A stretch of DNA of 64,000 nt from Eledone cirrhosa (taxonomy: Eukaryota): NCBI GenBank assembly GCA_964016885.1, contig OZ024751.1, positions 10,230,001-10,294,000 on the forward strand, written 5' to 3'. Shown in pieces: positions 16,682-55,331 of the stretch. The notes beneath the pieces are model-generated. The model was given only the letters and a program-made list of their open reading frames with translations, was not told the DNA's origin and made no database searches. Numbering within the stretch: the first letter of the stretch is position 1; each line of letters begins with the position of its first letter. Both the position numbers and the translations under genes were made by a program.

Positions 16682-19600
16682 CTTACATACAGAGAGAGAG
16701 AGAGAAGAAGAAGGGAGATAATTCAACAAATATTTACCTTACTCTCAACACATTTATTTCGGTAGAAGGTGTAGATTTCCAACATATTTTTATCAGCTAT
16801 GTGAGTGCTAAGCCAGAGTTGAGTATAGCTTTCTCCATTATCTCGTAGATTATCTAAACAGACAAGATATAGTGAGAAAATATTAAGTAACAGAGCAAAA
16901 TACAAATAACTAGAGCTTGGGGCAAGTAGGACCATCAGACCATACCCACTGCTCCACTTATCCTCCTCCTCTTTCCCCTCACCTGGTCTCACCTGGCTAC
17001 AATGTAAAACATAAAAATACCCAAACTATTTACTTACCAAAACCATAATTATCAGATGAGGATCCATAAAAGAAGACACAAGACGCTAAAACAGTTACAG
17101 CAGCTTCAAGTGAAACGGCGTCCATAAAGTGACAAAATTCTGTACAACTTGCTAACTTAATGACATCATCCATGGAAGGGCGATCTTTGGGTTCCTGCGA
17201 CCAACAGAGGGTCATCAAATCAAGAAAGTGGGAAGGACATTCAGTTTCCTAAAGAATTAGAAAAAAAAATGATGATGATGGTCATATTAACAACAGCAAC
17301 AACAATAATATTGTAAAATACAGAGATCAGAGAGTCATTCCAGGCAGAGCTGTTACTTCTCTGAATTAAGAGATAACAGCTCTGATACTATGAGCATGTG
17401 GTGAGATTGTTGTCAGAAAAGAATCACTGGTGAGTCACTCAGGTATAGCCACTACTTCTCTAAATTGAAAGATCACAGCTCCAATATTATGGGCATGTGG
17501 TTAGAATGGAGTTCCTTCTAAGGGTCTTTGGAACAATGTTAGTCGATAGAATGTGTAGCTCAGAGATCAGAGAGCCATTCCAGGTAGAGCTGCTACTTCT
17601 CCAAATTAGGAGATCACCGCTGTGATACTATGGACATGTAGTTAGAATTGCTGGACAGATATTACAAGCAAAATCAACTTCTTGTGACAGGACCCACTGC
17701 AAGGAGTGTTTGAGGACTCTGCTCCCATGACCTTCTCAGTAATAAGGGGGCGAAGAAGTACTTTGTAATAGGAAAGGCAAATCTACCAAATAAAGGGACA
17801 GAAGGAATCTTCATCTGAGTTAATAATGACAACTTCCCTAATGCTGGTTCCACAATAAAATGCCCTCAATAGAGTACAGGAACGTAAGTAAATGAGATAT
17901 GAGCCCCCAGTCCTTCTATGAGGTCAGAAGCTTCACTTGAGAACTGACATTGTCTGTGATGACTCATCCAACCCTTGCTAGCAGGAAGAATGGACTTTAA
18001 ATGATGATGATGGATTTTAAATGATGATGGTGATGATGATTCTAACAAAAGTACAGGGCCAGAAATATTTTAATCAATTAACCAAAGAATTTAAAACAGA
18101 GTCCCAGAAATTAATCATCACCATTAACTTTGGTTCTCTTGTCAATTCTCCATTTTGACATCTCATATATAAAGCAGTGAATTGGCAGTCATTAGAACAT
18201 TGGCTAGAGTGTTGTGTGGTATTCATTCCAGCTCTCTGCGTTTAAATCACACCAAGGTCAACTTTGCCTTTTGTCCTTTCGAGGTTGATAAAAAAAAGTA
18301 CCAGTCAAGTACTGGGGTTGATTCTTCAACTATATCTATTTCTCATTCCTTCTCTGTAAAAAATCTCCTATATTCAGACATGGAGAAGAGCTTGGCTCTG
18401 CCAGGCTTAAAATTCCATAGAAACACTGTATATCAATACGGTGCTCCCCTATAACTCCAACAGGAGTTACAGGACCATATACTCTCTATGATATACTACT
18501 GAAAAATAAATATAAATTATTTTTTAAAAAACTGAAAAATTGAATCTCCTACCTCTGGAGTAACTTTTGGTCTTCCACCTTGACAAATGAAATTGTTTAC
18601 ATGAGACTCTTTCCACAATGGTTGCTGGCATGTTACCAATTCATAGATAAACATTCCAAAGGAGAAACTATCAACCTGGAAGCAAGAAAAACATCATAAT
18701 TATTTATATATATATATATACATATATATATACAGTGAAACTTCAGTTAACGAACACCTCTCATCACGAACAAATCAGTTCGCGAACAATTAAATTATAT
18801 ATATATATAGAGATAGATAGATAGATATCAATTAAAAGTAGTTAAGATGGGGTTACTTCACCTAATTACTTTATTGCATGATATATATTTCTGTTACATG
18901 GTTATGCATGTGACTTCATCAGATGCTCATACAAATAGATGCAGTTATGCAATCATGGAGATATTGACAGTAAGTGTACATAAGAATTCCAGCTTTGAAC
19001 AAGGTACATAACTCTGCATGTCCTTTGTATTTTTGAGATAACTGGTAAAACAAAAAACAATAGATTCTCCAACTACATCTGAACTAAATTCTTGACATTA
19101 GGGAGGGCAACCAATTGTAAACATTTTTTTTTTTCACAAAAAAATAAAAAAATAAATATTCTATCTGATATGCAGAAGCACAAAAAAAAAGAATTAAAAA
19201 AAAGGATTTTAAATAATGAAAAAAAGGTAATGTTTACCTTATCTGTGTATATGTCCTTTCCCACATGTTGAAGTATCTCTGGAGCAATGAAAGGTGGAGT
19301 CCCACCAAAGCCTTTAGTTCCAGTTGGCAAGGACATACGACTAATGCCGTAGTCAGCAAGCCTAACATCAACTTGGAAGTCAGGATTTACTGCAAGTGGG
19401 ATGGGGAATGACCAGACAAGGACGTTTTCTGATTTAAGGTCGCGGTAGATTATTCCTTTTGAATGGAGATAAGATAATGCTGATGCAATCTGAAGAGAGA
19501 AAAATGAAGATTGAAATAAATGAACCAAGGACAGTGGCTTGGCAGTATTAGTAGAGTGTCAGACAACGTGCCTTACAGCATATACAAAGGTTCAACTGAA

Positions 19601-21103
19601 AAGTTCAAAGGCTGTCTATGAAGAAGTGATGCTACAGCTGTGAAATCTTGTAGGCATTAATTTCAACTCTTCTTATTAATAACTGTATTGTTTCTGTTCA
19701 GGGACTGTTGAAAATTAAACCTCATTTGGTCATTCTATGAGAGTATCTTGGTCAGCCTATGATCTTTTCAGTTGACCCTCATACACTACACCACACTCAA
19801 AGATCGCATATACAAGTGGCCAAAATGGAGTTCCTCTGAAGGGTCTTTGGAGTAATGTTACAAAGAGTGCTTAGCTTGACGATCAGATAATCGCTCAAGG
19901 TAAAGCCGCTACTTCTTCGAATTGAGAGATCACAGCTGTGATACTATGGGCATGTGATTAGAATGTCTCAGGAGAGAATCACTGGAGAGTCACTCCAGGT
20001 AGAGCTGCTGCTTCTCTGAATTGAGAGATCACAGCTCCAACACAATGAGCATGTGGTTAGAAAGTCTCAGGAAAGAATCACTGGAGTGTCACTCCAGGTA
20101 GAGCTACTACTTCTCTGAATTGAGAGATCACAGCTCCGATACTATGAGCATGTGGTTAGAATGTCTCAGGAAAGAATCGGTGGACAAATTTTATGTGCAA
20201 AACTAATCAACAGGAGACCCAGGGGTAAACTCCAATCAAGATGGTTGGATAACATCCATGAGCTTAGCTGGTCTCGCTTGGGGACATCAGTTAGAGATGG
20301 TTGTTTCTGGTAGGACCTGCTGGAAGGAGTGTTTGAGGGCTCTGTCCTCATGACCCTCTCAGGAATATGTGACAAAGAAGAAGAAAATACTCAAAGAATC
20401 ATACCAACCTGTAATATAACATTTTTAACAGCAAACACAGGCAGCATGTCTTGCTTATCTCGATATGTTTTCAATAAAGAATTTAATGAGCCATGTGGTG
20501 CCAGTTCAAGAACTAAGGCCAAAGGATGAATAACGACGCCCAAAAGTTCAACAATCTGCGGATGATGAAGAGATTGAAGAATAGCAATCTCTTGCCGTGC
20601 TGTTGTATACGCATGGACTGCATTATACATACGATGGTCAATCGTCTGAAGAAGAGAAAATACAGCTTAGTTCATAGAATACAATACTCCAACAGCAAAT
20701 ACACACCTCTTCTCTGGAATTAGTTAATAATGTGCTTAAAACAAGATTACATTTAACAAATGCATGTACACACATTATCATCATCATCATCATCATCATC
20801 AACGTTTAACGTCCGTGTTCCACGCTTGCATGGGTTTGGACATATATATATATATATATTAATCAATGAAAAAAGATGCCAAGCACTCAACAGTATAAAT
20901 TTATCCGGAGTATTATTATACTATTATAATAATAGTAATAAACGAAAGATATATACTTTATATCATCTCTATTTATTTTGTTATATATATTTCGAAGATG
21001 TAAAGTTTTATGTATAACATATATATATATATATATATATGTCTATCCACTCCCACTTGATCACAATCTTATGTATAAGATTGTAATCAAGTGGGAGTGG
21101 ATA

Positions 21104-25380: not shown

Positions 25381-28300
25381 CATGCACATACATATACATA
25401 CATACACACACATATATATACACACACATACATTAATAACAATAATAATAATAACAACAATAATAATAACGACAACAACAATAATAATATACATATACAT
25501 ATATATATACACACACACGCACGCACATAAGCATATCTACACACACACACACACACGATAGCAACTAACAGCGCTGCGATCGAATGTGGCTTTTTAGCCC
25601 AGCCAATGATCTAAAATGTCTTGCACAGAGTCGGCAACCAAAACATTCACTGGAAATAGTCGGCTGTGGTTGGAGTTTGTGTACTTTTGCATGTCGCTTG
25701 AGCCCTCCTGCTGATTTACATTCTCTACCACATGTTTGGCAAGCATGATGAGTAGCATCTCCAACAGCAGCCTGGTAGTCAACCACTGGTCTTACTCTAT
25801 GACTGCGAAGATGACTTTCGAGTCCAGCTTTGCTTAGGCAGAGTCTCGCACAGACACTGCATGTCAGCACCATAGGAGGACCCTCGCCGTCTGGAAGTGC
25901 AACAGCAATGCCCTTCCTCACATCCCGCTTTACTTTCTCGTATGCGATTCGAGATGCCCCAAAGGCAACTTTTCCCTCATATACAGTCTTTCTCCATTTA
26001 TTACGATCAGCAGCAATATTTTCCCATGTATCAGCAGAGATGTTAGCGTCTTTCAGGTCTGCTAGATTCATTGTGGGTAAAAAACGATGCTATATGCTTT
26101 TCTGGGTGGAAAATGATAATGGGCTGGGTGGGGTAAACATCATGTTAGCAGAAAAATGGGTGGATAAGATAATAGACGTAAATAGAGTGGATGACAGAAT
26201 AATTAAAATAAGACTTGTTCTATTTAGAACTACTGTGACAGTAATATCTGCGAACGCGCCCCAATCCGGACTGCCTGGCGCTATAAAAGACAGTGTCTAT
26301 GAGACACTGATGCTCACTACCTCCCAAATAACCGACAGTGACTATATAATTATTGCTGGTGACCTAAATGGTCACGTTGGACAACATTGTGACGGCTATG
26401 ACGGAATCCACGGAGGCTATGGGTTTGGTACTAGAAATGAGGAAGGCTCCAGAATCCTGGAATTCTGTGACGCAAATAACCTAACTATCTGTAACACTAA
26501 CTTAAAAAAACGAGACAATCACTTGATCACCTACAGATCAGGGAAACATACCAGCCAGGTAGATTATATCCTTACCAGAAGACGTGACAGAGTGTCTGTT
26601 GTAAACACTAAATCCCTCCCCCATGAAGAATGCACCTCCCAACATAGACTCATAATTAGCGACCTCATAGTCAGGATGAGACGTACTCGACAGCAGAAGA
26701 GGACTATCCTCAGGAGAAAAATATGGAAGCTAAAGGACCCCACAGCCAGAAATAAATTTAAAAGCATATTACTTGATGCTTTCGACAGTAAGGAAGAGCA
26801 TTTAGAGTCGCACAATATAGAGGAACAGTGGGAATTCCTGAAAGCAAACCTGCTGATGGCGGCAGATGAAGTCTGTGGCTGGAGCAGGCCTGTAGGCAGG
26901 AGGAGAGTAACATGGTGGTGGAACAGTAAGGTGGAAGAGTCAATTAAGGCCAAAAAGCAGGCTTGGAAAGTATGGCGAGATGGGGGAAGTAGAGAAGACT
27001 ATCAAGTGGCCAGGAGGGAAGCTAGGAGACGAGTGTACTTTGCAAGAAGGGAAGCAGAGGAAAGAAAGTTCAAGCATGTTCTACAACACGAGGACCAAAA
27101 ACGTGAGGTGTTCAGGATTGCTAGGCAATGTGTCAAGGAAAACCGTGATATTGTCGGAGAGAAGTGTGTACTTAATGATGATGGTGTACTTGCCATCACT
27201 GACGCTGATAAGAAGGTAGCTTGGAAGTGTCACTACGAAAGGCTACTAAATGAGGAGAATAAATGGGAGAAAGACAGTCTCCCCCACATCGACCCAATAG
27301 AGGGACCAGCAGTGTTAGTCGAAGGTAGTATAATAAGTAAGGCAATCAAAGATATGAAGACGGGTAAGGCGGGTGGGCCTTCGGAAATAGTTGCTGAAAT
27401 GCTGAAAGCTTCTGGAACGGTGGGACACACCATGGTCACCTGGATAGTAAACCAAGTCATACAGAATGGGGTTGTTCCGAAGGACTGGCGTAGCAGCATC
27501 ATCATTAACTGCTACAAGGGTAAATGAGATGCCCTAGATAGGAGTAACTATAGAGGCATTAAATTAATCGACCAGGTCATGAAGGTCACAGAAAAAGTAA
27601 TAGCGCAACTAATCAGAGAGAGAATTGATCTAGATGAAATGCAGTTCGGGTTTGTGTCAGGCAAAAGTAACACAGACGCTCTTTTCATTGTACGACAACT
27701 ACAGGAGAAGTACCTAGCTAAAAGTAAACCCCTATACTTAGCTTTTGTCGACTTGGAGAAAGCCTTCGACAGAGTCCCCCGTTCCATTATCTGGTGGGCT
27801 CTTAGAAAACTAGGTGTTGATGAATGGCTTGTGAGAGCTATACAAGCCATGTATAAAGAAACAGTCAGCAAGGTTAGAATTAACAACGAATATAGTGAAG
27901 AGTTTAGCGTAAAAGTTGGTGTTCATCAGGGCTCCGTTCTTAGCCCTCTACTATTTATTATTGCCCTTCAGGCTATAACAGTGGAGTTCAAGACCGGCTG
28001 CCCATGGGAACTCCTATACGCAGATGATCTAACGCTCATAGCTGAATCAATGGCCGAACTAGAGAAGAAATTCCAAACATGGAAGTATGGCCTAGAATCA
28101 AAAGGCCTTAAAATTAACCTGTCTAAGACTAAAGTTCTAGTTTGTAGGAAGGAAAATAGGGCGCCGGTCAGCATCCGGGAAATGGCCATGCTCAGTGTGT
28201 AGGAAAGGAGTAGGTAGAAACTCCATTTTATGTCCCAAATGCAAAGTATGGGTGCATAAAAGATGTAGTGGGATCACAGGTAAGCTAACTAAGAACATAG

Positions 28301-44400: not shown

Positions 44401-47400
44401 TCATCTTCACCATTTCACATCTATTTCCAAGCTTCCATTGGTTAGACAAACAATCACAAACTGAGACTAGACTGATCAAATAACCACATCTTGCTCATAT
44501 ACTCTATTTCTGACCTGGTTTCTACAGGCCATCCATTTCACAGCATTTATTGGGAAAATGTTATTGTTACTCTAGCACGACCTCTTTACAGGGTAGACTG
44601 GGGGACTATTTTTGTGACACCAGCACCACCACCTTATAGAGTGGACTGGGTGCTTTTTTCATGGATGACTATCTTACAGAATTGACTGGGTGCTATTTGT
44701 CATGGCATCAGCATTGCCACTATACAGGGTGGCCTGCATGGTTTAAAACATAAAATAACAGGCACATGGCTTAGTGGTTAGAGCATTGGCCTTGCAATCA
44801 ATTCTCAGACCAGGTGATGTGTTGTTTCCTTGAGCAAGACACTTTATTTCACATTGCTCCAGTTTACTCAGCTGTAGAAATGAGAAGATAGGGACCCCAG
44901 TCCCTATCATTCCACTGTAAAGTGGTCGTGGAGGTGCCACGGCAAAAAAAGCACCCAGCACTCACTGTAAATGAGGTTGGTGTTAGGAAGGGCATCCAGC
45001 TGTAGAAATCAAGCCAGAATCAGTTCCCGTCCCACCCTTGCAAGCAGGGAAAAAGCGGACGTAAAAATGAAATGATGATGATGATACATATATATATATA
45101 CTCTAAAGTGGTTGTGTAGGTGTCACGATAAAAAGCACCCAGCACACACTGTAAATGTGGTTGGTGTTAGGAAGGGCATCCAGCTGTAGAAACCAAGCCA
45201 AAACCAGTCCCGTATGAGCAAGTCATGGTAATTGGACAACTAATCTAACCCATGCTGGCATGGAAAATGGATGTTAAACAGTGATGATGATATATATATA
45301 TATATATATAAACAATGAGTTATATGCTTTATTGATGAGTATTCAACAGAGCTATGTTCATAACAGATAAGCATCTATAATAACGGTCCTTTTATCTGTT
45401 TAATATATCCCTATTAAGTTATATCCTATGAAATTTTGAGATTCTATTTCACATACCCATTGTAAGCTGACGTTGGAGGTTTATACTTTGGGGATGTCAC
45501 TATCTTATACATCAAATATTGTATTTTATCTGATGAAAGCATACTACAATTTAGTATCCTTGAAATCTAAACTATGATAAAGTAAGGAGTGTGGGACTGC
45601 ATCCAGAATATAATTTTTATCTCGTTTGTAAAATAAGTTGGATTATTTTGAATAAATAATTGTTTCTACTTTAGGCACAAGGCCAGCAAATACCCAGTTC
45701 ATTACTGGTACTTTATTTTATCGACCCTGTAAGGATGAAAGGCAAAGTCAACCTCGGCGGGATTTGAACTCAGATCGTAAAGGGACGTAACTATGCTGGA
45801 AAGCATGGCGTCCGACCCTCTACCGATACTGCCAATGAATGAATATTACATAATTTATCTACTAAATTTTGTGGCTGTTCATTAAATATATTTTATTACT
45901 TATTTAAAGATTCACTTCTTTAAAATTTTCAAATGCCAACACTTCCGGTTAGCGATCGCTTAAATAAACATTTCCGTCCCTAATTTTCTCCTAATGCAGT
46001 TTATATATAATATCGTCTTTTTTTAATGTATCATGGATTACGTTACTGATTACATAAGAGAGTGAAACGCAGTCTTCATACAATTTCTGTGTATATTGTC
46101 AATTACGATTTTATTTGATATATCATATCTACATGCGTATAATATCAATATGCACACTACACATGCTAGCAGAAAATCACCTGATGGGTGGTTTTTCTGC
46201 TAGTATGTATAATAAAATAAATATGATGCGATAGTGATATTTTCCATTTATTACTATTGTTAATAATATTATATATATATATAAAATTGAATATAAAAGA
46301 GAGATAAACACAGATATATACATATATGTGTTCAAATCGTAAGGGACCAGATTTGCTAGGGTGAAAAAAATACTAACTATGAACAATAGTCGAGTAAACT
46401 TGGCTGCTATTTTTAGTAGCATACGTTTTGTGAGACACGCTGGACACTGGATGCCATGTGCATTATTTTATACACGCACACCATTCAGTATTCTGAGATA
46501 CTTAGAAGTGAAGGGTTTACTAATTTCCACACCCACTGAAGAGCAATAGAAATGGTAATTCCCTGTCACTAAATTGCGAAACAGCATTACCAAAAGCTGT
46601 CTGGGTGTCTGATACTTATCGCAATTTCGGTTTGTATATTTTTTCTTAATTTATTCTGTTAAATTTAGTCTGACAAACCCTATTGTTCATAGTTCGTAAT
46701 TTTTTCACCCTAGCGAATCTGGTTCCTTACGATTTGAACACATATGTATATGTATGTGTTTATCTCTTATTTTCAACTAGCAGTGGTACCCGGCGTTGCA
46801 TGGGATAAGTATTTTGGAATGCGGGCCACCAACAGACCTAATCGTGGAAAAACTGCATGCCTGGACAATATGTAAAGAAAATAAACCAAATACTCTGATG
46901 GCTGGATAATCTTTAAGATTTTCCTCGATGAAGCAGGAAAAGTGCAGGTTTTCACCTAATGCGGGCCCTAGGGCATCAAGAAAATGAATTCTTTTTATGT
47001 GCATAATATGCCGTGAAATTTCGGGAAAATCGGCTAGACGTAACACCTCAAAAAAGTGCTAAAAAGCTGAAAAAATAAAGTTTTTCACCTAAAGTGGGCC
47101 CTAGGCCATAAAAAAGTTGGATTTTCTTTGCTCATGGTATGAAGAAGAGACTGACTAATACATAGTTACAATTTCAAGGAAATCGGTCTGACGTAACGCC
47201 TCAAAAAACCCTAAAAGGCTGAAAAAATGCAGTTTTTCACCCAATGTGGGCCCTAGGGGATCAAAAAGTTGAATTTTTTTATGTGCATAACGCTCCCTGA
47301 AACATAAGTAATACACATGTAAAGTTTGAAAAGTTGGGTACTTCTCGAATTTTAGGGATTCGAACTCACACACACACACACACATCCTCTTTTTTATATA

Positions 47401-49747
47401 TATAGATTATATTATACAGCCCAGAAAAATTTCTTTCCTTGAGCTATTTAATTGTAAGAGACTATTTTGAGTTTCTAACTCAATATATAACTTTGATATA
47501 TATATATATATTTTTTTTTTTGGGGGGGGGGGGGTCATTTTGGAAGCCTCAACAATGCAGATGGGTAAATCTCCGGGTAACAGAATCCGGTGGTGAAGAG
47601 AGAGATGTAAGAAGGAATGTAGAATGAGATGTATAGTGTGTAGAGGAACGTAGGAAAGAGCGTAAAATTTAAAATAATAACACGAGATAGAGTTACCTTG
47701 AGAGAGATTTAATTGTCCCTATATTTCGGATTTCGCATCCATCAACTGGGGGGTTTTCCGAGGGGAAAAGTTATCTGTCAGAGAGGAACGGTATGTGGCC
47801 TCTGTTGTCCACCGTTTGTGTGTAACTGAGATATTGTGTAGAGCGCGCGTGCGCACGGAATAGGTGCGGTCAAGCAAAGGTCGAGGCATCTCCTCTTTAT
47901 TGTGGGAGTGGGATGGTGCTAGCTGTCAGTACATTGTACTACCTATATTCAGTCTTTGTTACTGGTAGTGTAGTAGTCTGCCTGGTCGATTGTTGGTCGG
48001 TGGATGGTGGGGACGCTATACACACAATAACAATCGTTCGAATGCCACTGAGTGTGTGTGCGTGTGCTGTTGCCTCGTTTGTTTACACCAACCACCTCAT
48101 CTCACTTCTCTCGGATCGGTTATTTATTGGTGGTCCTGGCGTTTGATCCAAAGTGCTTCCATGATTCTTAAAGTGCCGACGTTGCGTTCTGTCGCTAGCA
48201 CTGTGACAATGGGCCTTCCGTCTTTGTTTCCGCATTTGGTTATGTGTTTCCGGAAAGACGAGGCCTGGTGTTGCTGTGCTCCTTGATCCGGATATGTAGT
48301 GGCCGGATTGTGCTACCGATATAGTAGTGGTTGCACTTGTCACATTCTACCCTGTATACAACGTATGTGCATAAGCAACAGTTCGTTTGACGCATCGGAC
48401 GGTTTCCGAGGGAACACGCGTCAGTCGATTTCCCGGGTTTCCTGGAGAGGCATCTGCGTAAGGAGGGGCCTGAGTGGGCTAGGTGGATATCGAGGCCCTC
48501 TCTCTCCGTATAGCCCTGCGGATAGCGTTGGTGGTTTTCTCACCCAGGTGCGGGATTTTAAGGAAGCACTTGCTTTGGGTGTTTCTCTGCCTCTTGCGTC
48601 TGGTGTTTCTTACTCTGTTTGTAAGCGAGGCTGGGTATCCGTTCATCTCCTGCACCCTGAGGAACCGCTTGGTATGGGTGACACCACGCACAGGATCGCT
48701 ACATCCGTTTTTAATTTGTGTGATCTCGTTCATGATGTACCCTCTTTTAGCACTGTTAGGGAGAGCAGACTTGTAGTGGACGAACAAGTCCCTGCAGGCT
48801 GCCTTGCGGTAGAAGTTGGTGTGGATCCCTCCCTGCTCCGTGATGTTGATTTGGAAGTCGAGGAGGGCAAGGGACCCGTCGTTGTTGGGGTGTTCAACAC
48901 TGAAATCAATATTCTCGTCCGTGTTGTTGAACATCTCATAAATTCCGCTCGCCATCTCCTGGGAAGATGTGAGGTTGAGGATGTCGTCCACGTACCTTGA
49001 GAAGAAGGCAACAGCATTGGGGTGGCATGTGTTGAGTGCCTTGCACTCGAGGCTGTCCATGTATGAGATCTCTAGCACACCCGACAGGCTTGAGCCCATG
49101 GGCAGCCCCGAGGTTTGCCGGTATGTTTGGTCGAGAAAACCGAAATACGTGTTGTCAACGATGACGGATAGGAGCTGGTGGATGTCAGTGGAGGTGAGCC
49201 CGAAGCAGTGTAGGTCGGTAGATTGAACGCGTTCCATCAGTATATCAACGGCCAGGAGCGTTGGGACGGAGGTGTAAAGAGTGACCTCATCAAGACATAC
49301 CTGTTAGCCTTTCTGGTGTTGGGATCCATTTGATGTAGGTGCTCCAACACCTCCTCAGAGCTGTTTATGTGTCCCGGCAAGGTGTTTAGTATGGGTTTAA
49401 GTATTCTGGCTAGGAGCCATGAAATTTTGTAGAGCGGTCCTTCCACGCTCGATGCAATAGGTCTGATCTCCAGGTCGGGTCCCTGTTTGAGTGTTTTCAC
49501 AAGGTGGTAGAAGGCGGGTGGTCTGCTGTTCCTCGTGAGGAGGTTGTATCTGAGCTTCTTCGGGAGCTTCCGCCGGTCACAGGTGTTGGCCCAGGCGGCG
49601 TTGATGTGCTCCTCGATCTGCACGAGAGTGATTCCTGTGAATTTGGAGTAGAGGTTGTCATCACCAAGGTGTTGGAGGGCCAGGGTGTTGTAGGCCTCTC
49701 TGCTGATGACGCAGAATTCTTTTCCCTTGTCGGAGGGGAGGTATATA

Positions 49748-49807
<60 letters not shown>

Positions 49808-52800
49808 AAATGAGTCAGGACCCCGATGGCTGAGCTCCGGCCATTTCGACAGCTAAATCCTAACAGAGAACTTTGGCGCGTTATTGTCCACCTGGTATCT
49901 TACCACATCTTCTTTGTTATATACACACACATATATATATATATATACATATATACATATTTACACACGCACATATATATATATACACACACAAACATAT
50001 ATACATATATAAATACATAGACATATAATAATACATACTTGGGTATCTTAGCTCAAAAGCTAGATCGTAAATACGCTGTAGTAGTTTTTTCACGTTGTTT
50101 CCCGTTATGTTGCTAACATTCCAAGCATCAATAACAATGGGAAGACCACATTTGTCAGGTTCCGGAACCATGTAACGGTCTTCAATAAGCTTCATCATTG
50201 TTTCTTCAAAATCTTTTGGAAAGCTACCACGAGTTGATCGGTTCTTAAGGACATCCAAGTGAGTGCCAATGATAATGACTGAGGAACCAGGAGCTTGCGA
50301 CTACAAATATATTAAAATATTTGACATGTACAGTGAAATTTCGTTATAACGAAATTCACAGATCGACCAAATCAAATTGAGCGTTTGTTTGTTAATAACT
50401 CGGAGATTGAAAAACAGTTGTTATACTGAAAAATTTGTTATAATTGTATTCATTATAATGGAATTTTACCTGTACAACTTTAGGTATATTCTATTGGAAT
50501 TGTTCTATTGTTTAACCCTTTAGCATTTACATTACTCTATATATACTGTTGTATTTTCGCAGTAAAGGCTTTATCTTATACAATTATCTCACATGATATC
50601 AAATCTACGAGATTTTGGTATTATTTATTTTGAGAACAATACCTTAACATCAGTATGAGGGGTCAGTTGGGGCTGGTTTGAACAGAAAGAGGTGAGAGAA
50701 TTCTAGCGGGATATGGCCGGTTTAAATGCTAATGGATTAAACTGTTACAATTGTAGCAGCAACACAAACACACACACACACACAACAAACACACACGCGC
50801 AAGTGCACAAGCACACACACACAGAATGTAAAAGGCTGTAATTATATGCAACAAAGCATGTAGTCTGATGCTCTACCAATACTGCCAATCAAATAATAAT
50901 AATAACAACAATGTTTTTTTATATTAACCACAAGGGTTGACACAAAGTTTAACATTAAGGACAACACAGGACGGTACAGGAGAACACAGGACGGGACAAA
51001 TGGGCATTTTTGCATTTAAAAAACGAAACATAAAATACAAACAAAGGATGTAACAGAAAAATGAAACAAACTAAAAATTCTCCAATAGCGGGGAGACTTC
51101 TGAGGGTTACTCATGGAGAAAGCCCACAAAAAGCCATGGTGACCCTGACCACCAGGGCAAGTGCCTCTCCCAGTTTTCCACTTCCAATCTACAGGTGCAT
51201 ACTCAGAGCAGGTTCGTTCACTTGGGCCATGCTCGCCTCTCTCATCTATCTTTCAACAAATTGCTGGAAAGGAAGCACCTCCCTTCCCTAATAATAATAA
51301 TAATAATAACAACTTACCTGAATGTTAATTAGCCACTGAAGCATACCATTAACACCTTCCTCACCATCTGAAATCTTCCAGATTACAAGGTAGAGTGATC
51401 GCTTCAGCAGAAAGTAGCGATGGGTGGCGTAGTACTCCCGCTGAAGAACATTTAGAAGAAGAACAACAATGAAGAATTATTAAAAGATGGGATGGTCATA
51501 ATTGGAACGTCTTTGAGCATATCTCTGCCTAGTCAGAGTTAACTAGGACCAAAATAACAACAATATCTACCACCACTGTAACACCCCCTCCACTATCGCC
51601 ACTTCACCACTACCATAACACCCCCCACCACTACCATAACACCACGTTACCCCTCCACCACTACCATAACACCACGTTACCCCTCCACCACTACCATAAC
51701 ACCCCCCCACCACTACCATAACACCACGTTACCCCTCCACCGCTACCATAACACCCCCCCACCACTACCATAACACTATTTTACCCCTCCACTACTACCA
51801 TAACACCCTCCACCACTACCATAACACCACTTTACCACTCCACCACTCCACCACTACCATAACACCACTCCACCACTACCATAACACCACTCCACCACTA
51901 CCATAACACCACTTTACCCCTCCACCATTACCATAACACCCCCACCACTACCATAACACCACTTTACCACTCCACCACTACCATAACACCCCCCACCACT
52001 ACCATAACACCACGTTACCCCTCCACCACTACCATAACACCATTTTACCCCTCCACTACTACCATAACACCCTCCACCACTACCATAACACCACTTTACC
52101 ACTCCACCACTACCATAACACCACTACCATAACACCACTTTACCCCTCCACCACTACCATAACACCACTTTACCACTCCACCACTACCATAACACCACTT
52201 TACCACTCTACCACTACCATAACACCACTTTACCCCTCCACCACTACCATAACACCACTTTACCACTCCACCACTACCATAACACCACTTTACCACTCCA
52301 CCACTACCATAACACCACAACACCACTACCATAACACCACAACACCACTCCACCACTACCCACTTCCACCATCAACTATAGTCAAAAGTTATGATACTAT
52401 GTAAATGAGGAAGTATTAGACCACCTTACCTGTCCACCCCCATCACCTCCAGTACACCACCACCACCAACAACAATAACAATATTCATATGTAAATGAGG
52501 AACTATTAGACCATCTTACCTGTCCTCCAAAGTCCCAGGTACGGAATGTAATTGGACCTTTTGTTGGTTTGTCAAGAATCACCTTCTCCATATCAATGCC
52601 AACTGTTGATAATAACCGGCCCTTTGTTGTGCCACTCCCTCCTATACGCTCCACCCAGTGCTGAAATTAACAGAGAAATTACTGGAATCATCATCATTAA
52701 CATCATCAAATTATCTCATCTTCATCAAAATTCTCTCACCATCACCATTACTATCACCAGCATCACCACTAACACTAACATCATCATCATCATCGTCGTC

Positions 52801-55331
52801 ACCGTCACTAAAGCCAACACCATCACCACTAACAATAACATCATCATCATCATCATCATCATCATCACCACTAACAACATTATCATCATCACCACCAACA
52901 TCTTCACCACTAACACTAACACCATCATCATCACCAACACCAGCATCGGCACCAACACTACCAACACTAACACCACCATCAGTATCATCATCATCACTAA
53001 CACCAACATCCGCATTATCACTAATATCACCAACATCATCACCATCATTAACACCATCACCACTTTCACTATCATTATCATCATCATCCTCATCCACGCC
53101 ATCTCTAACATCACCATCATCACCGACATAACCACCAGTCATTAAAACAAACCGACCACCATCAACATCATCCCTATCAAATCACATCACCACCACAAGA
53201 CTGTGAGGACCTTGACCAGACAGTGCTTCATGTTGTTCAGGATTGTCCCCTCAGACGTTTTCCTGGAGGCCTGGAGGCAATCTATAATACTACAAATACG
53301 CCTTAGTCTGGCTCACCAATCTCTATCTCTCTAACCATTGTGCATATGACATACACAAGAGAAGAACACCACCACAACAACCACCCTCATCTCCAATGCT
53401 AGCACCGATACCGTCACCAGGGCCAGACATTCACGTGCAGAGGCCCTAAGCTATAAAAATTTGGATAAAAAAATGTTTAAATAATTATCTAAGATTATTA
53501 CTTTTTATATTAATGTCAATGATAAAGAATTATATATATGTGTGTATGTATGTATGATGCCATAACTTCTGATAAAGTTGTAGAGGTGCCGTATTGACAT
53601 ACAGCATTTCTTGGCATTGTAGAGGTGCCGTATTGACACAGCATTTCTTGGCATTGTAGAGGTGCCGTATTGACATACAGCATTTCTTGGGCATTTTAAG
53701 CCTGGCCGAGCCCATCCCTCTCCAGGCCTGAGAACAGCAAATTCCTTCCTAAGAGAGGCAAAATTGACCCCAGTATTAGACTGGTACTTTTTTTTTTATC
53801 GATCTCAGAAAGATGAAAGGCAAGGTTGACTTTGATAGGATTTCAACACAGAGACGGAACAAATACCATAAAACATTCTATTCGACGTTCTAACGACTTC
53901 CAATTCGCCACCTATATATAAAGGTCTCGATCCAGTGTCATTGTCTTAGAGAGGTGTAGGTGTGCAAGGTCAGTTTTTATCACCTCATCCCAGGTTTTTC
54001 TTGGTCTACCCACTCCGTAGCTTCCATCAATTTTCATTGCTCTGCACTTTTTTATACAGCTGTCGTCCTTCATACACATCACATGTTCATACCAACGCAA
54101 CCTCCTCTCCAGAACATAACATAACCTCTTATGTTTAGTCTCTCTCTTAATTTGTTTATGCTTCGCCTTTCGCGCACATTACTATTACACTTCCATCGGA
54201 GCATGCTAGCTTCATTTCTTTCTAATCTATGCAGGTCTTCAGTATGCAATGCCCAAGTCTCACTACCATGTAATATCACCGTTTGTATACATGCATCATA
54301 CAATCTGCCTTTCATTTTTAGAGAAAAACCCCTTTTTCCATCCTGCTCTAACTCTGGCTACTAAGTTTCAGAGCACCCTCCTCCACTGCTGATTTTGTCA
54401 CTCAGGTAACGGAAGGTGTCTATTATTTCTACAGGACGGTGGATTGGCAGTATCGGTAGAGGGTTGGAGGCCATGCTTTGATGCATAGAGTTACAGCCCT
54501 TGCCATTCTGAGTTCAAATCCCGCCGAGGTTAACTTTGCCTTTCATCCTTACGGGGTCGATAAAATAAAGTACCAGTAATACACTGGGTAATTGTTGGCC
54601 TTGTGCCAAAAGTAGAAACAATTATTTCTACAGAACCATCTTTTATGTACCCATAGTTTCCATTTGGGACATAGAATGGAGTTTCTGCCTACTCCTTTCT
54701 TACACGCTGAGTATGGCCATTTCCCAGAGGGTACCTGTGCCCTATTCTTCTTTCTACATACTAGAACCTTAGTCTTAGACAAGTTGACTCTAAGGCCTTT
54801 TGATTCAAGGCCATGCTTCCATGTTTGGAACTTCCTCTCTAGTTCAGCCATGGATTCAGCTATGAGAGTTAGATCATCTGCATATAGAAGTTCCCATGGG
54901 CAGCCCGTCTTAAATCCCTCTGTTATACCCTGTAGGACAATAATAAACAGGAAGGGGCTAAGAACAGAGCCCTGGTGAACCCCTACTATTACGCTAAATT
55001 CATCACTATATTCATCGTTGATACTCACCTTCCTGACTGTTCCTCTATACATGGCTTGTATAGCTCTCACAAGCCATTCTTCCACTCGTAGTTTTCTAAG
55101 AGCCCACCAGATTAAGGTGCATGAGACTCTGTCAAAGGCCTTCTCCAGGTCAACAAAAGTTAAGTAGAGGGGTTTACTGTTAGCTAGGTTCTTCTCCTGT
55201 AATTGCCGTACATGGAAAAGAGCATCCGTGGTACTTTTACCTGGCACAAATCCAAACTGCATTTCATCTAGATCAATTTGGTCTCTAATCAGTTGAGTAA
55301 TAACACTTTCTGTAACTTTCTAGTTTTTCTA

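Follow-up and report, generated by a model that had tools for sequence, protein, structure and literature searches.

Does the hammerhead-like sequence found in this part of the Eledone cirrhosa genome belong to a mobile element, and with which partner does its loop II pair? The window, that is, the whole stretch of 64,000 nucleotides analysed here (contig OZ024751.1 of assembly GCA_964016885.1, positions 10,230,001 to 10,294,000 of the forward strand), contains a predicted full-stem ribozyme that an initial annotation placed inside an inverted-repeat element of approximately 490 bp, and to which it attributed a pairing between loops II and III, acting either as an atypical pseudoknot or as a conformational switch. 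Comparison with related copies in the host genome leads to a different picture. We consider it probable that the locus is a decayed copy of a non-coding repeat of approximately 520 bp, likely mobilized by Penelope-like elements (PLEs), whose hammerhead is predicted to be docked through pairing of loop II with the 5' flank of stem I, and not by a pairing of loops II and III. This reading draws on the repeat status of the sequence, the anatomy of its insertions, covariation in stems I and III and in the flank–loop II helix, and the disappearance of the II–III match from certain subfamilies. The features concerned are collected in Table 1.

Table 1. Features of the element copy and of its predicted ribozyme, in window coordinates
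Feature	Position	Strand	Remarks
Whole element copy	46276-47501		interrupted by a 630-bp insert
Inverted, 5'-truncated copy of the unit's 3' part (left 'arm')	46276-46389	-	ends in a TA run
Main 5'-truncated copy, first part	46389-46776	+
Nested, unrelated high-copy repeat	46777-47406	-	TC...CTAG ends, between A and T, no duplication
Remainder of main copy: 85-nt 'tail' to second 3' end	47407-47501	+	followed by a TA run
Flank–loop II helix, 5' flank strand	46507-46527	+	pairs with loop II
Predicted type I hammerhead	46529-46608	+	motif match; stems I and III covary
Stem I	46529-46535/46602-46608	+	ACACCCA/TGGGTGT, 7 bp
Core CUGAAGA	46536-46542	+
Stem II	46543-46547/46573-46577	+	5 bp; first 2 bp alone kept family-wide
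Flank–loop II helix, loop II strand	46549-46570	+	contains the 7-mer 46553-46559
Core GAAA	46578-46581	+
Stem III	46581-46585/46596-46600	+	5 bp, ACAGC/GCTGT
Loop III	46586-46595	+	complementary to loop II over 7 nt in the window's subfamily; not kept family-wide
GUC and predicted cut	GUC ends 46601; cut after 46601	+
Small hairpin 3' of stem I	46610-46621	+	two compensatory pairs

The Repeat Family and Its Insertions

A first-look search of the 3.0-Gb host genome returned 3,089 candidates, 40 of which were scored, and two exact core patterns gave 415 and 463 genome matches with none in the controls, placing the number of intact cores at 463 at least. The repeat unit measures close to 520 bp (522 in L004, and 518 and 508 between the tandem hammerheads of L101 and L226, respectively) and holds no long open reading frame, nor one for a reverse transcriptase or GIY-YIG protein.

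The insertions share a characteristic anatomy. Among 159 loci, the 3' end of the main copy falls at one site in 65 and at another, located 85 nt beyond the first, in 60. Of these 125 ends, 95 precede a 10-nt stretch in which nine or more positions are A or T. An inverted, 5'-truncated copy adjoins the main copy in 95 of the 159 loci; where both ends lie at the two sites (51 loci), direct and inverted copies use opposite sites in all but two cases (49/51). Inverted copies measure 29-463 bp (80 of 119 loci, with a looser distance). A full unit or more is spanned in 62/159 loci, same-strand hammerheads one unit apart occur in 2/159 only, the 5' ends of the copies are scattered, and many copies carry no inverted arm. 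At locus L233, a copy that starts at the predicted ribozyme cut is followed by three separate copies of a 95-nt tail segment. Excerpts of the PLE literature describe this combination of tandem, inverted and tail structures for these elements (PMC8557442, PMC11167929), and the best reading of the unit, from sequence features, is that it would be a non-autonomous PLE or retrozyme-type element.

The search for a parent element was negative, in that the unit has no homology to the Penelope remnant of the window, to loci L121-L123, or to 30 Neptune-like copies. The last belong to a family that we take to be Neptune-like by clade; it is a very young PLE family (L157-L186) with open frames of 775 aa, whose 150 scored copies are 98-100% identical over the query, and which ends, within (TA)n, at either of two 3' sites separated by about 65 nt. 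Another repeat carrying a hammerhead, this one with a short stem III, was encountered in L111 (minus strand, near position 423 of the reverse strand) and in the flank of L163, where the adjoining sequence is 84% similar to window positions 45950-46220, just upstream of the element. A further hammerhead guessed at 46047-46075 had no intact copy in the genome search and was discarded.

The Copy in the Window

The inverted arms that had been described as bounding an element of about 490 bp do exist, being 88 nt long and 88% complementary; they do not, however, mark its limits. The right arm ends at 46776 because a different repeat has been inserted there, and the element resumes at 47407. The apparent 490-bp element is an accident of truncation and of this later insertion, and the arms are a by-product of the insertion process and not fixed termini. 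The nested repeat has an approximately 100-fold higher read depth and internal subrepeats of about 150 bp, and is found at the same position of the unit in L094; its ends and its location between A and T are presumably a Helitron-like signature. Both the repeat and the boundary of the insert are visible in four sequencing runs, three of DNA and one of unknown kind.

The element is adjoined by a decayed Penelope element on the minus strand (47520-49900; RVT_1, E 7.8e-7; GIY-YIG, E 8.7e-4), whose 3' UTR carries a remnant resembling a minimal hammerhead near 47700-47735. Also on the minus strand are kinase exons (17033-20666), exons that we take to be Roc-like from their motifs and that have no Pfam match (49917-52666), a fragment of a C2H2 zinc-finger array (25568-26089), and a second reverse-transcriptase fragment (54552-55319). 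The kinase and Roc-like exons suggest that a Roco/LRRK-like gene may span the element. Since these flanking exons lie on the minus strand, the ribozyme is likely to be antisense to a host intron, and it would not be expected to cut the pre-mRNA of such a gene.

The Predicted Hammerhead

The sequences CUGANGA, GAAA and NUH are arranged around three helices with the motif open at stem I, as in type I hammerheads. A direct reading of the sequence recovered every part of the motif at the position originally assigned to it, and its identity as a hammerhead is supported by compensatory changes in stems I and III. An Rfam search of the window produced no family at the gathering threshold, and none of the five weak matches (E up to 10) was to a hammerhead family; the 25-nt loop II may be a reason for this miss.

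Stem I, stem II (2 bp), stem III and the 3' hairpin are 95% paired in an alignment of 96 copies, their covariation exceeds that of 500 out of 500 shuffles, and changes on both sides are seen in two pairs of stem I and two of the hairpin. A second set of 42 copies from other subfamilies adds three stem III pairs changed on both sides, and reveals that stem II lacks its third pair in 30/42 copies and its fourth in 34/42; in the family at large, just two pairs of this stem are kept. Helix III of animal type I hammerheads is usually 1-2 bp long, according to an excerpt of PMC4209133. Because stem III here is a 5-bp, non-palindromic helix, unusual for animal type I motifs, cleavage as a monomer is plausible for hammerheads of the type seen in the window.

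The predicted cut site is traversed intact in 521 copies and not in 7, and the template of reverse transcription would therefore have been uncut, or re-ligated, in nearly all cases. Five copies have a 5' end that coincides with the predicted cut, whereas each of two control offsets has a single one (one-sided P 0.04, in a post hoc comparison with one mis-specified control pattern, of whose 8 matches just 1 had a true 5' end), which may be a weak hint of cleavage in vivo.

The Match Between Loops II and III

The complementarity between TGGTAAT of loop II (46553-46559) and ATTACCA of loop III (46586-46592), to which the initial annotation had drawn attention, is present in the window copy, with a duplex energy of -6.7 kcal/mol. 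A match of at least 7 bp arises in just 0.5% of 20,000 shuffles of the loops, and is thus not a matter of simple chance in this copy. Among the 96 aligned copies, the eight II–III pairs are 79% formed, the outer ones being broken in about 40 copies, and their covariation is matched by 55 of 500 shuffles, which is not above chance. In a motif-anchored comparison of 94 copies, five core pairs are kept in 78-85 copies with zero double changes, and two recurrent changes in the loop III core both retain a wobble pair. The patterns used to collect this first sample fixed four bases each of stem II and stem III, which biased it and made both stem II and the loop III core look more conserved than they are; the missing subfamilies were found with a second pattern.

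Once these are included, the longest II–III duplex has at least 7 bp in 32 of the 149 copies and is limited to 4 bp or fewer in 55. Duplexes of at most 4 bp occur in 14/15 copies of one group, in some of which the loop III motif is lost or the loop has shrunk to 2 nt, and in 8/8 copies of each of two other groups. Another group has at least 7 bp in 9/10 copies, and the clade of the window has 7-8 bp. Lacking covariation, and with the match lost in whole subfamilies, the II–III pseudoknot is improbable as a functional contact. Structural considerations point the same way. Helices II and III of hammerheads form a coaxial stack, and the outer end of stem III lies far from the point where stem I contacts stem II (PMC4209133, PMC10085705, both in excerpt); loops II and III should therefore point apart, and their pairing would be incompatible with the active fold. 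The II–III pairing is dispensable and is probably an incidental feature, with a possible minor role in some subfamilies.

A Long Helix Between Loop II and the Flank of Stem I

Loop II of the window copy also pairs with the 5' flank of stem I, over 19 bp and with an energy of -18.8 kcal/mol. This helix and the II–III duplex compete for the same loop II bases, and the former is the stronger in 100 of 103 copies. After the exclusion of seven of these, whose 5' flank is not element sequence, 96 copies remained, in which the 18 pairs of the helix are 83% formed and three of them are compensatory (U-A/A-U in 49/42 copies, A-U/G-C in 55/33, and G-C/U-A in 44/19). In a tree built from sequence outside the motif, and restricted to the 50 of 96 copies with enough flank (the other 46 had too little), the three changes sit on three separate branches. 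Because the copies are related by descent, this support amounts to three events and not to hundreds, and the shuffle controls ignore such relatedness; the patterns with which the samples were chosen moreover prescribe the core as well as some stem positions, and the fixed positions are uninformative.

The second set (n=42) points in the same direction. The helix is 86% formed, and a U·G pair has become U-A in 11/42 copies, in a group from which the II–III match has gone; one of the covarying positions is unpaired in 8/42, which counts against the helix. An energy of -10 kcal/mol or lower is attained in 133/149 copies versus 27/149 with shuffled loops. The distal half of the helix also covaries. 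Also counting against the helix, U has repeatedly been replaced by C at two places in loop II (in 12 and 13 of 94 copies), with A·C mismatches in the long helix as well.

Only a few nucleotides separate the start of the helix from the tops of stems I and II, and where stem II has 2 bp, as in three subfamily groups, the helix starts directly beside both stems; the groups are hand-defined, one of them (D_GAGG) being mixed, and a tree of the 149-copy set, confounded by the two 3' ends, was left out of the analysis. A crude A-form estimate calls for approximately 5 linker nucleotides to accommodate 10 bp and 8-9 nt to accommodate 18-20 bp. With a linker of 2-5 nt, depending on the length of stem II, full zipping would open stem II in the window copy.

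In the best pseudoknot-free folds, the long helix (8 or more pairs) is formed in 53/96 copies and the II–III pairing in 12/96, and the hammerhead fold is disfavoured relative to the long helix by a median of 7.1 kcal/mol over the 96 copies, in a model that cannot score the pseudoknotted state; as modelled, this preference would fit a purely blocking role. RNAalifold applied to the 96 copies retained just 2 pairs, an uninformative outcome because the folds compete. Two patterns aimed at relatives whose loop II is short or whose stem II has an altered second pair recovered two deletion variants and one further copy. In searches of open-access text, we found no description of the 520-bp family or of an equally long flank–loop II helix.

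Alternative Readings

In the main alternative, the whole of the long helix would be a blocking, anti-hammerhead hairpin that prevents monomeric or circular RNA from being cut, in the manner predicted for the circles of plant retrozymes and viroids, with cleavage requiring a transient refold or a helper protein. We judge this reading rather unlikely, but several observations favor it. The helix is part of the minimum-energy fold of the window copy, as of the 53 copies mentioned above, and its formation need not wait for synthesis of the ribozyme's 3' half; two natural monomers folded as circles contain it and leave the hammerhead unformed. The excess of copies intact across the cut site (521 versus 7) is also as this reading would have it, and for one PLE, an excerpt of PMC11167929 reports that in vitro the hammerhead was cleaved only with protein and that uncut RNA was the main template. 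On the other hand, the start of the helix coincides with the tops of stems I and II, and subfamilies whose stem II measures 2 bp and whose loop has about 30 nt, which keep the core and a covarying stem III, would be hard to fold without docking. In addition, the long helix leaves the catalytic core uncovered, unlike the plant case as described in part in PMC4918200.

A functional pseudoknot or switch between loops II and III, at least in some subfamilies, appears improbable. The arguments for it are the 7-8 bp of the window's clade and the 7 bp or more in nine of ten copies of the second group, the retention of the five core pairs (78-85 of 94) with wobble-preserving changes in loop III, and the fact that removal of the flank brings the II–III pairing into the minimum-energy fold of the window copy; they are countered by the absence of covariation, by the copies reduced to 4 bp or fewer (55/149) and to loops of 2 nt, by the stronger use of the same bases in the flank helix (100/103), and by a first sample biased toward the subfamilies that have the match. 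A MITE-like DNA transposon with terminal inverted repeats of about 100 bp, in which the hammerhead would be a passenger or a product of chance, is very improbable. The window copy taken by itself could suggest it, with its 88-nt arms, its folding as one long hairpin and its TA-rich flanks, but elsewhere the arms vary from 29 to 463 bp or are missing, the 5' ends show scatter and units occur in tandem, and the covariation of the ribozyme stems speaks against a chance passenger. With variable arms and no fixed terminal inverted repeats this alternative is largely refuted, and since the insertions show the tandem, inverted and tail anatomy of PLEs, a MITE with fixed ends is excluded.

Comparison with Known Systems

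The closest parallels are the metazoan non-LTR retrozymes, which, as far as excerpts of PMC7229834 and bioRxiv 10.64898/2026.07.22.740005 describe them, also consist of a non-coding, AT-rich unit with one type I hammerhead each and have PLE machinery as their proposed mobilizer. In the cases described, their units are shorter (approximately 220-390 bp versus 508-522 bp here) and are organized in arrays, whereas the present family occurs mostly as dispersed insertions of 0.6-1.5 units; it also differs from what is described of them in its stable 5-bp stem III with a non-palindromic loop, its 2-bp stem II and its long flank–loop II helix. Most animal circles, with the exception of some from mussel, are predicted to leave the hammerhead free to fold (PMC7229834, in excerpt).

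With PLEs the family shares partial tandems, an inverted 5'-truncated copy, (TA)n targets, a type I hammerhead, and two 3' ends with the tail at only one end (PMC8557442, PMC11167929, PMC4209133, in excerpt). The tail is 85 nt long here and 30-40 nt in the PLEs of those excerpts, and, unlike autonomous PLEs, the unit has no reverse transcriptase/GIY-YIG reading frame; its hammerhead is a full three-stem one, versus the minimal, dimer-type motif usual in animal PLEs. By analogy, our verdict is that the unit would work like a non-LTR retrozyme or a non-autonomous PLE derivative.

The ribozyme itself resembles hammerheads with a pseudoknot between stems I and II, in which loop II pairs with the tail of stem I and a short stem II is tolerated; the complementary tract is about 18-19 bp here versus 5-6 bp in the tested pseudoknots of an excerpt of PMC3088659. 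In plant LTR retrozymes and viroids a complementary segment is predicted or reported to attenuate self-cleavage (PMC4918200), and the satellite RNA of cereal/barley yellow dwarf virus-RPV is likewise reported to contain an attenuating segment (PMC6155905, PMC1636495), although in the plant retrozymes, as excerpted, the motifs are of type III and the blocker pairs with most of the motif, whereas here only loop II is engaged.

A Possible Mechanism

The reading that we prefer, a PLE-mobilized repeat with a hammerhead docked by the flank–loop II helix, suggests the following sequence of events. Transcripts of tandem units would self-cleave after GUC and could circularize; a PLE protein with reverse transcriptase and GIY-YIG domains, acting in trans, would nick (TA)n DNA, and reverse transcription would start at one of the two internal sites, 85 nt apart. 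The outcome would be a direct copy accompanied by an inverted one of lesser length, begun at the other site.

Within the RNA, the stable 5-bp stem III would allow cleavage of the monomer. A pseudoknot joining stem I to stem II is activating and can sustain a stem II of as little as 1 bp, according to an excerpt of PMC3088659, and we infer that the core-proximal 9-11 bp of the long helix, approximately, are activating because the helix sits where Watson-Crick pseudoknots dock hammerheads (PMC3088659). This portion would constitute the stem I–stem II pseudoknot and let stem II shrink to 2 bp. The distal 8-9 bp or so are probably incompatible with stem II in the subfamily of the window, and full zipping would then yield a non-cleaving fold. 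It is possible, although we put it forward only tentatively, that the helix of about 19 bp switches the ribozyme on through pairing of its proximal half and off when it is fully zipped. The idea of a conformational on/off switch raised in the initial annotation survives in this form, with the 5' flank of stem I, and not loop III, as the partner of loop II.

Implications

The signature of the tail, with opposite 3' sites in nearly all insertions that could be compared (49/51), links a retrozyme-type unit to mobilization by PLEs, and is a line of evidence different from the pLTR homology described in an excerpt of bioRxiv 10.64898/2026.07.22.740005. How animal retrozyme circles escape self-cutting was left open in PMC7229834, which suggested a mechanism other than self-pairing; the present family offers a covarying, RNA-intrinsic candidate. 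It also provides a natural allelic series that can be tested in vitro, with a stem II of 2-6 bp, a loop III of 2-10 nt and a varied 3' linker. If the two halves of the long helix do act in opposite directions, an animal retrozyme-type element would gain control by RNA only, in which the multimer is cut while the circle or template is kept intact for Penelope-type reverse transcription.
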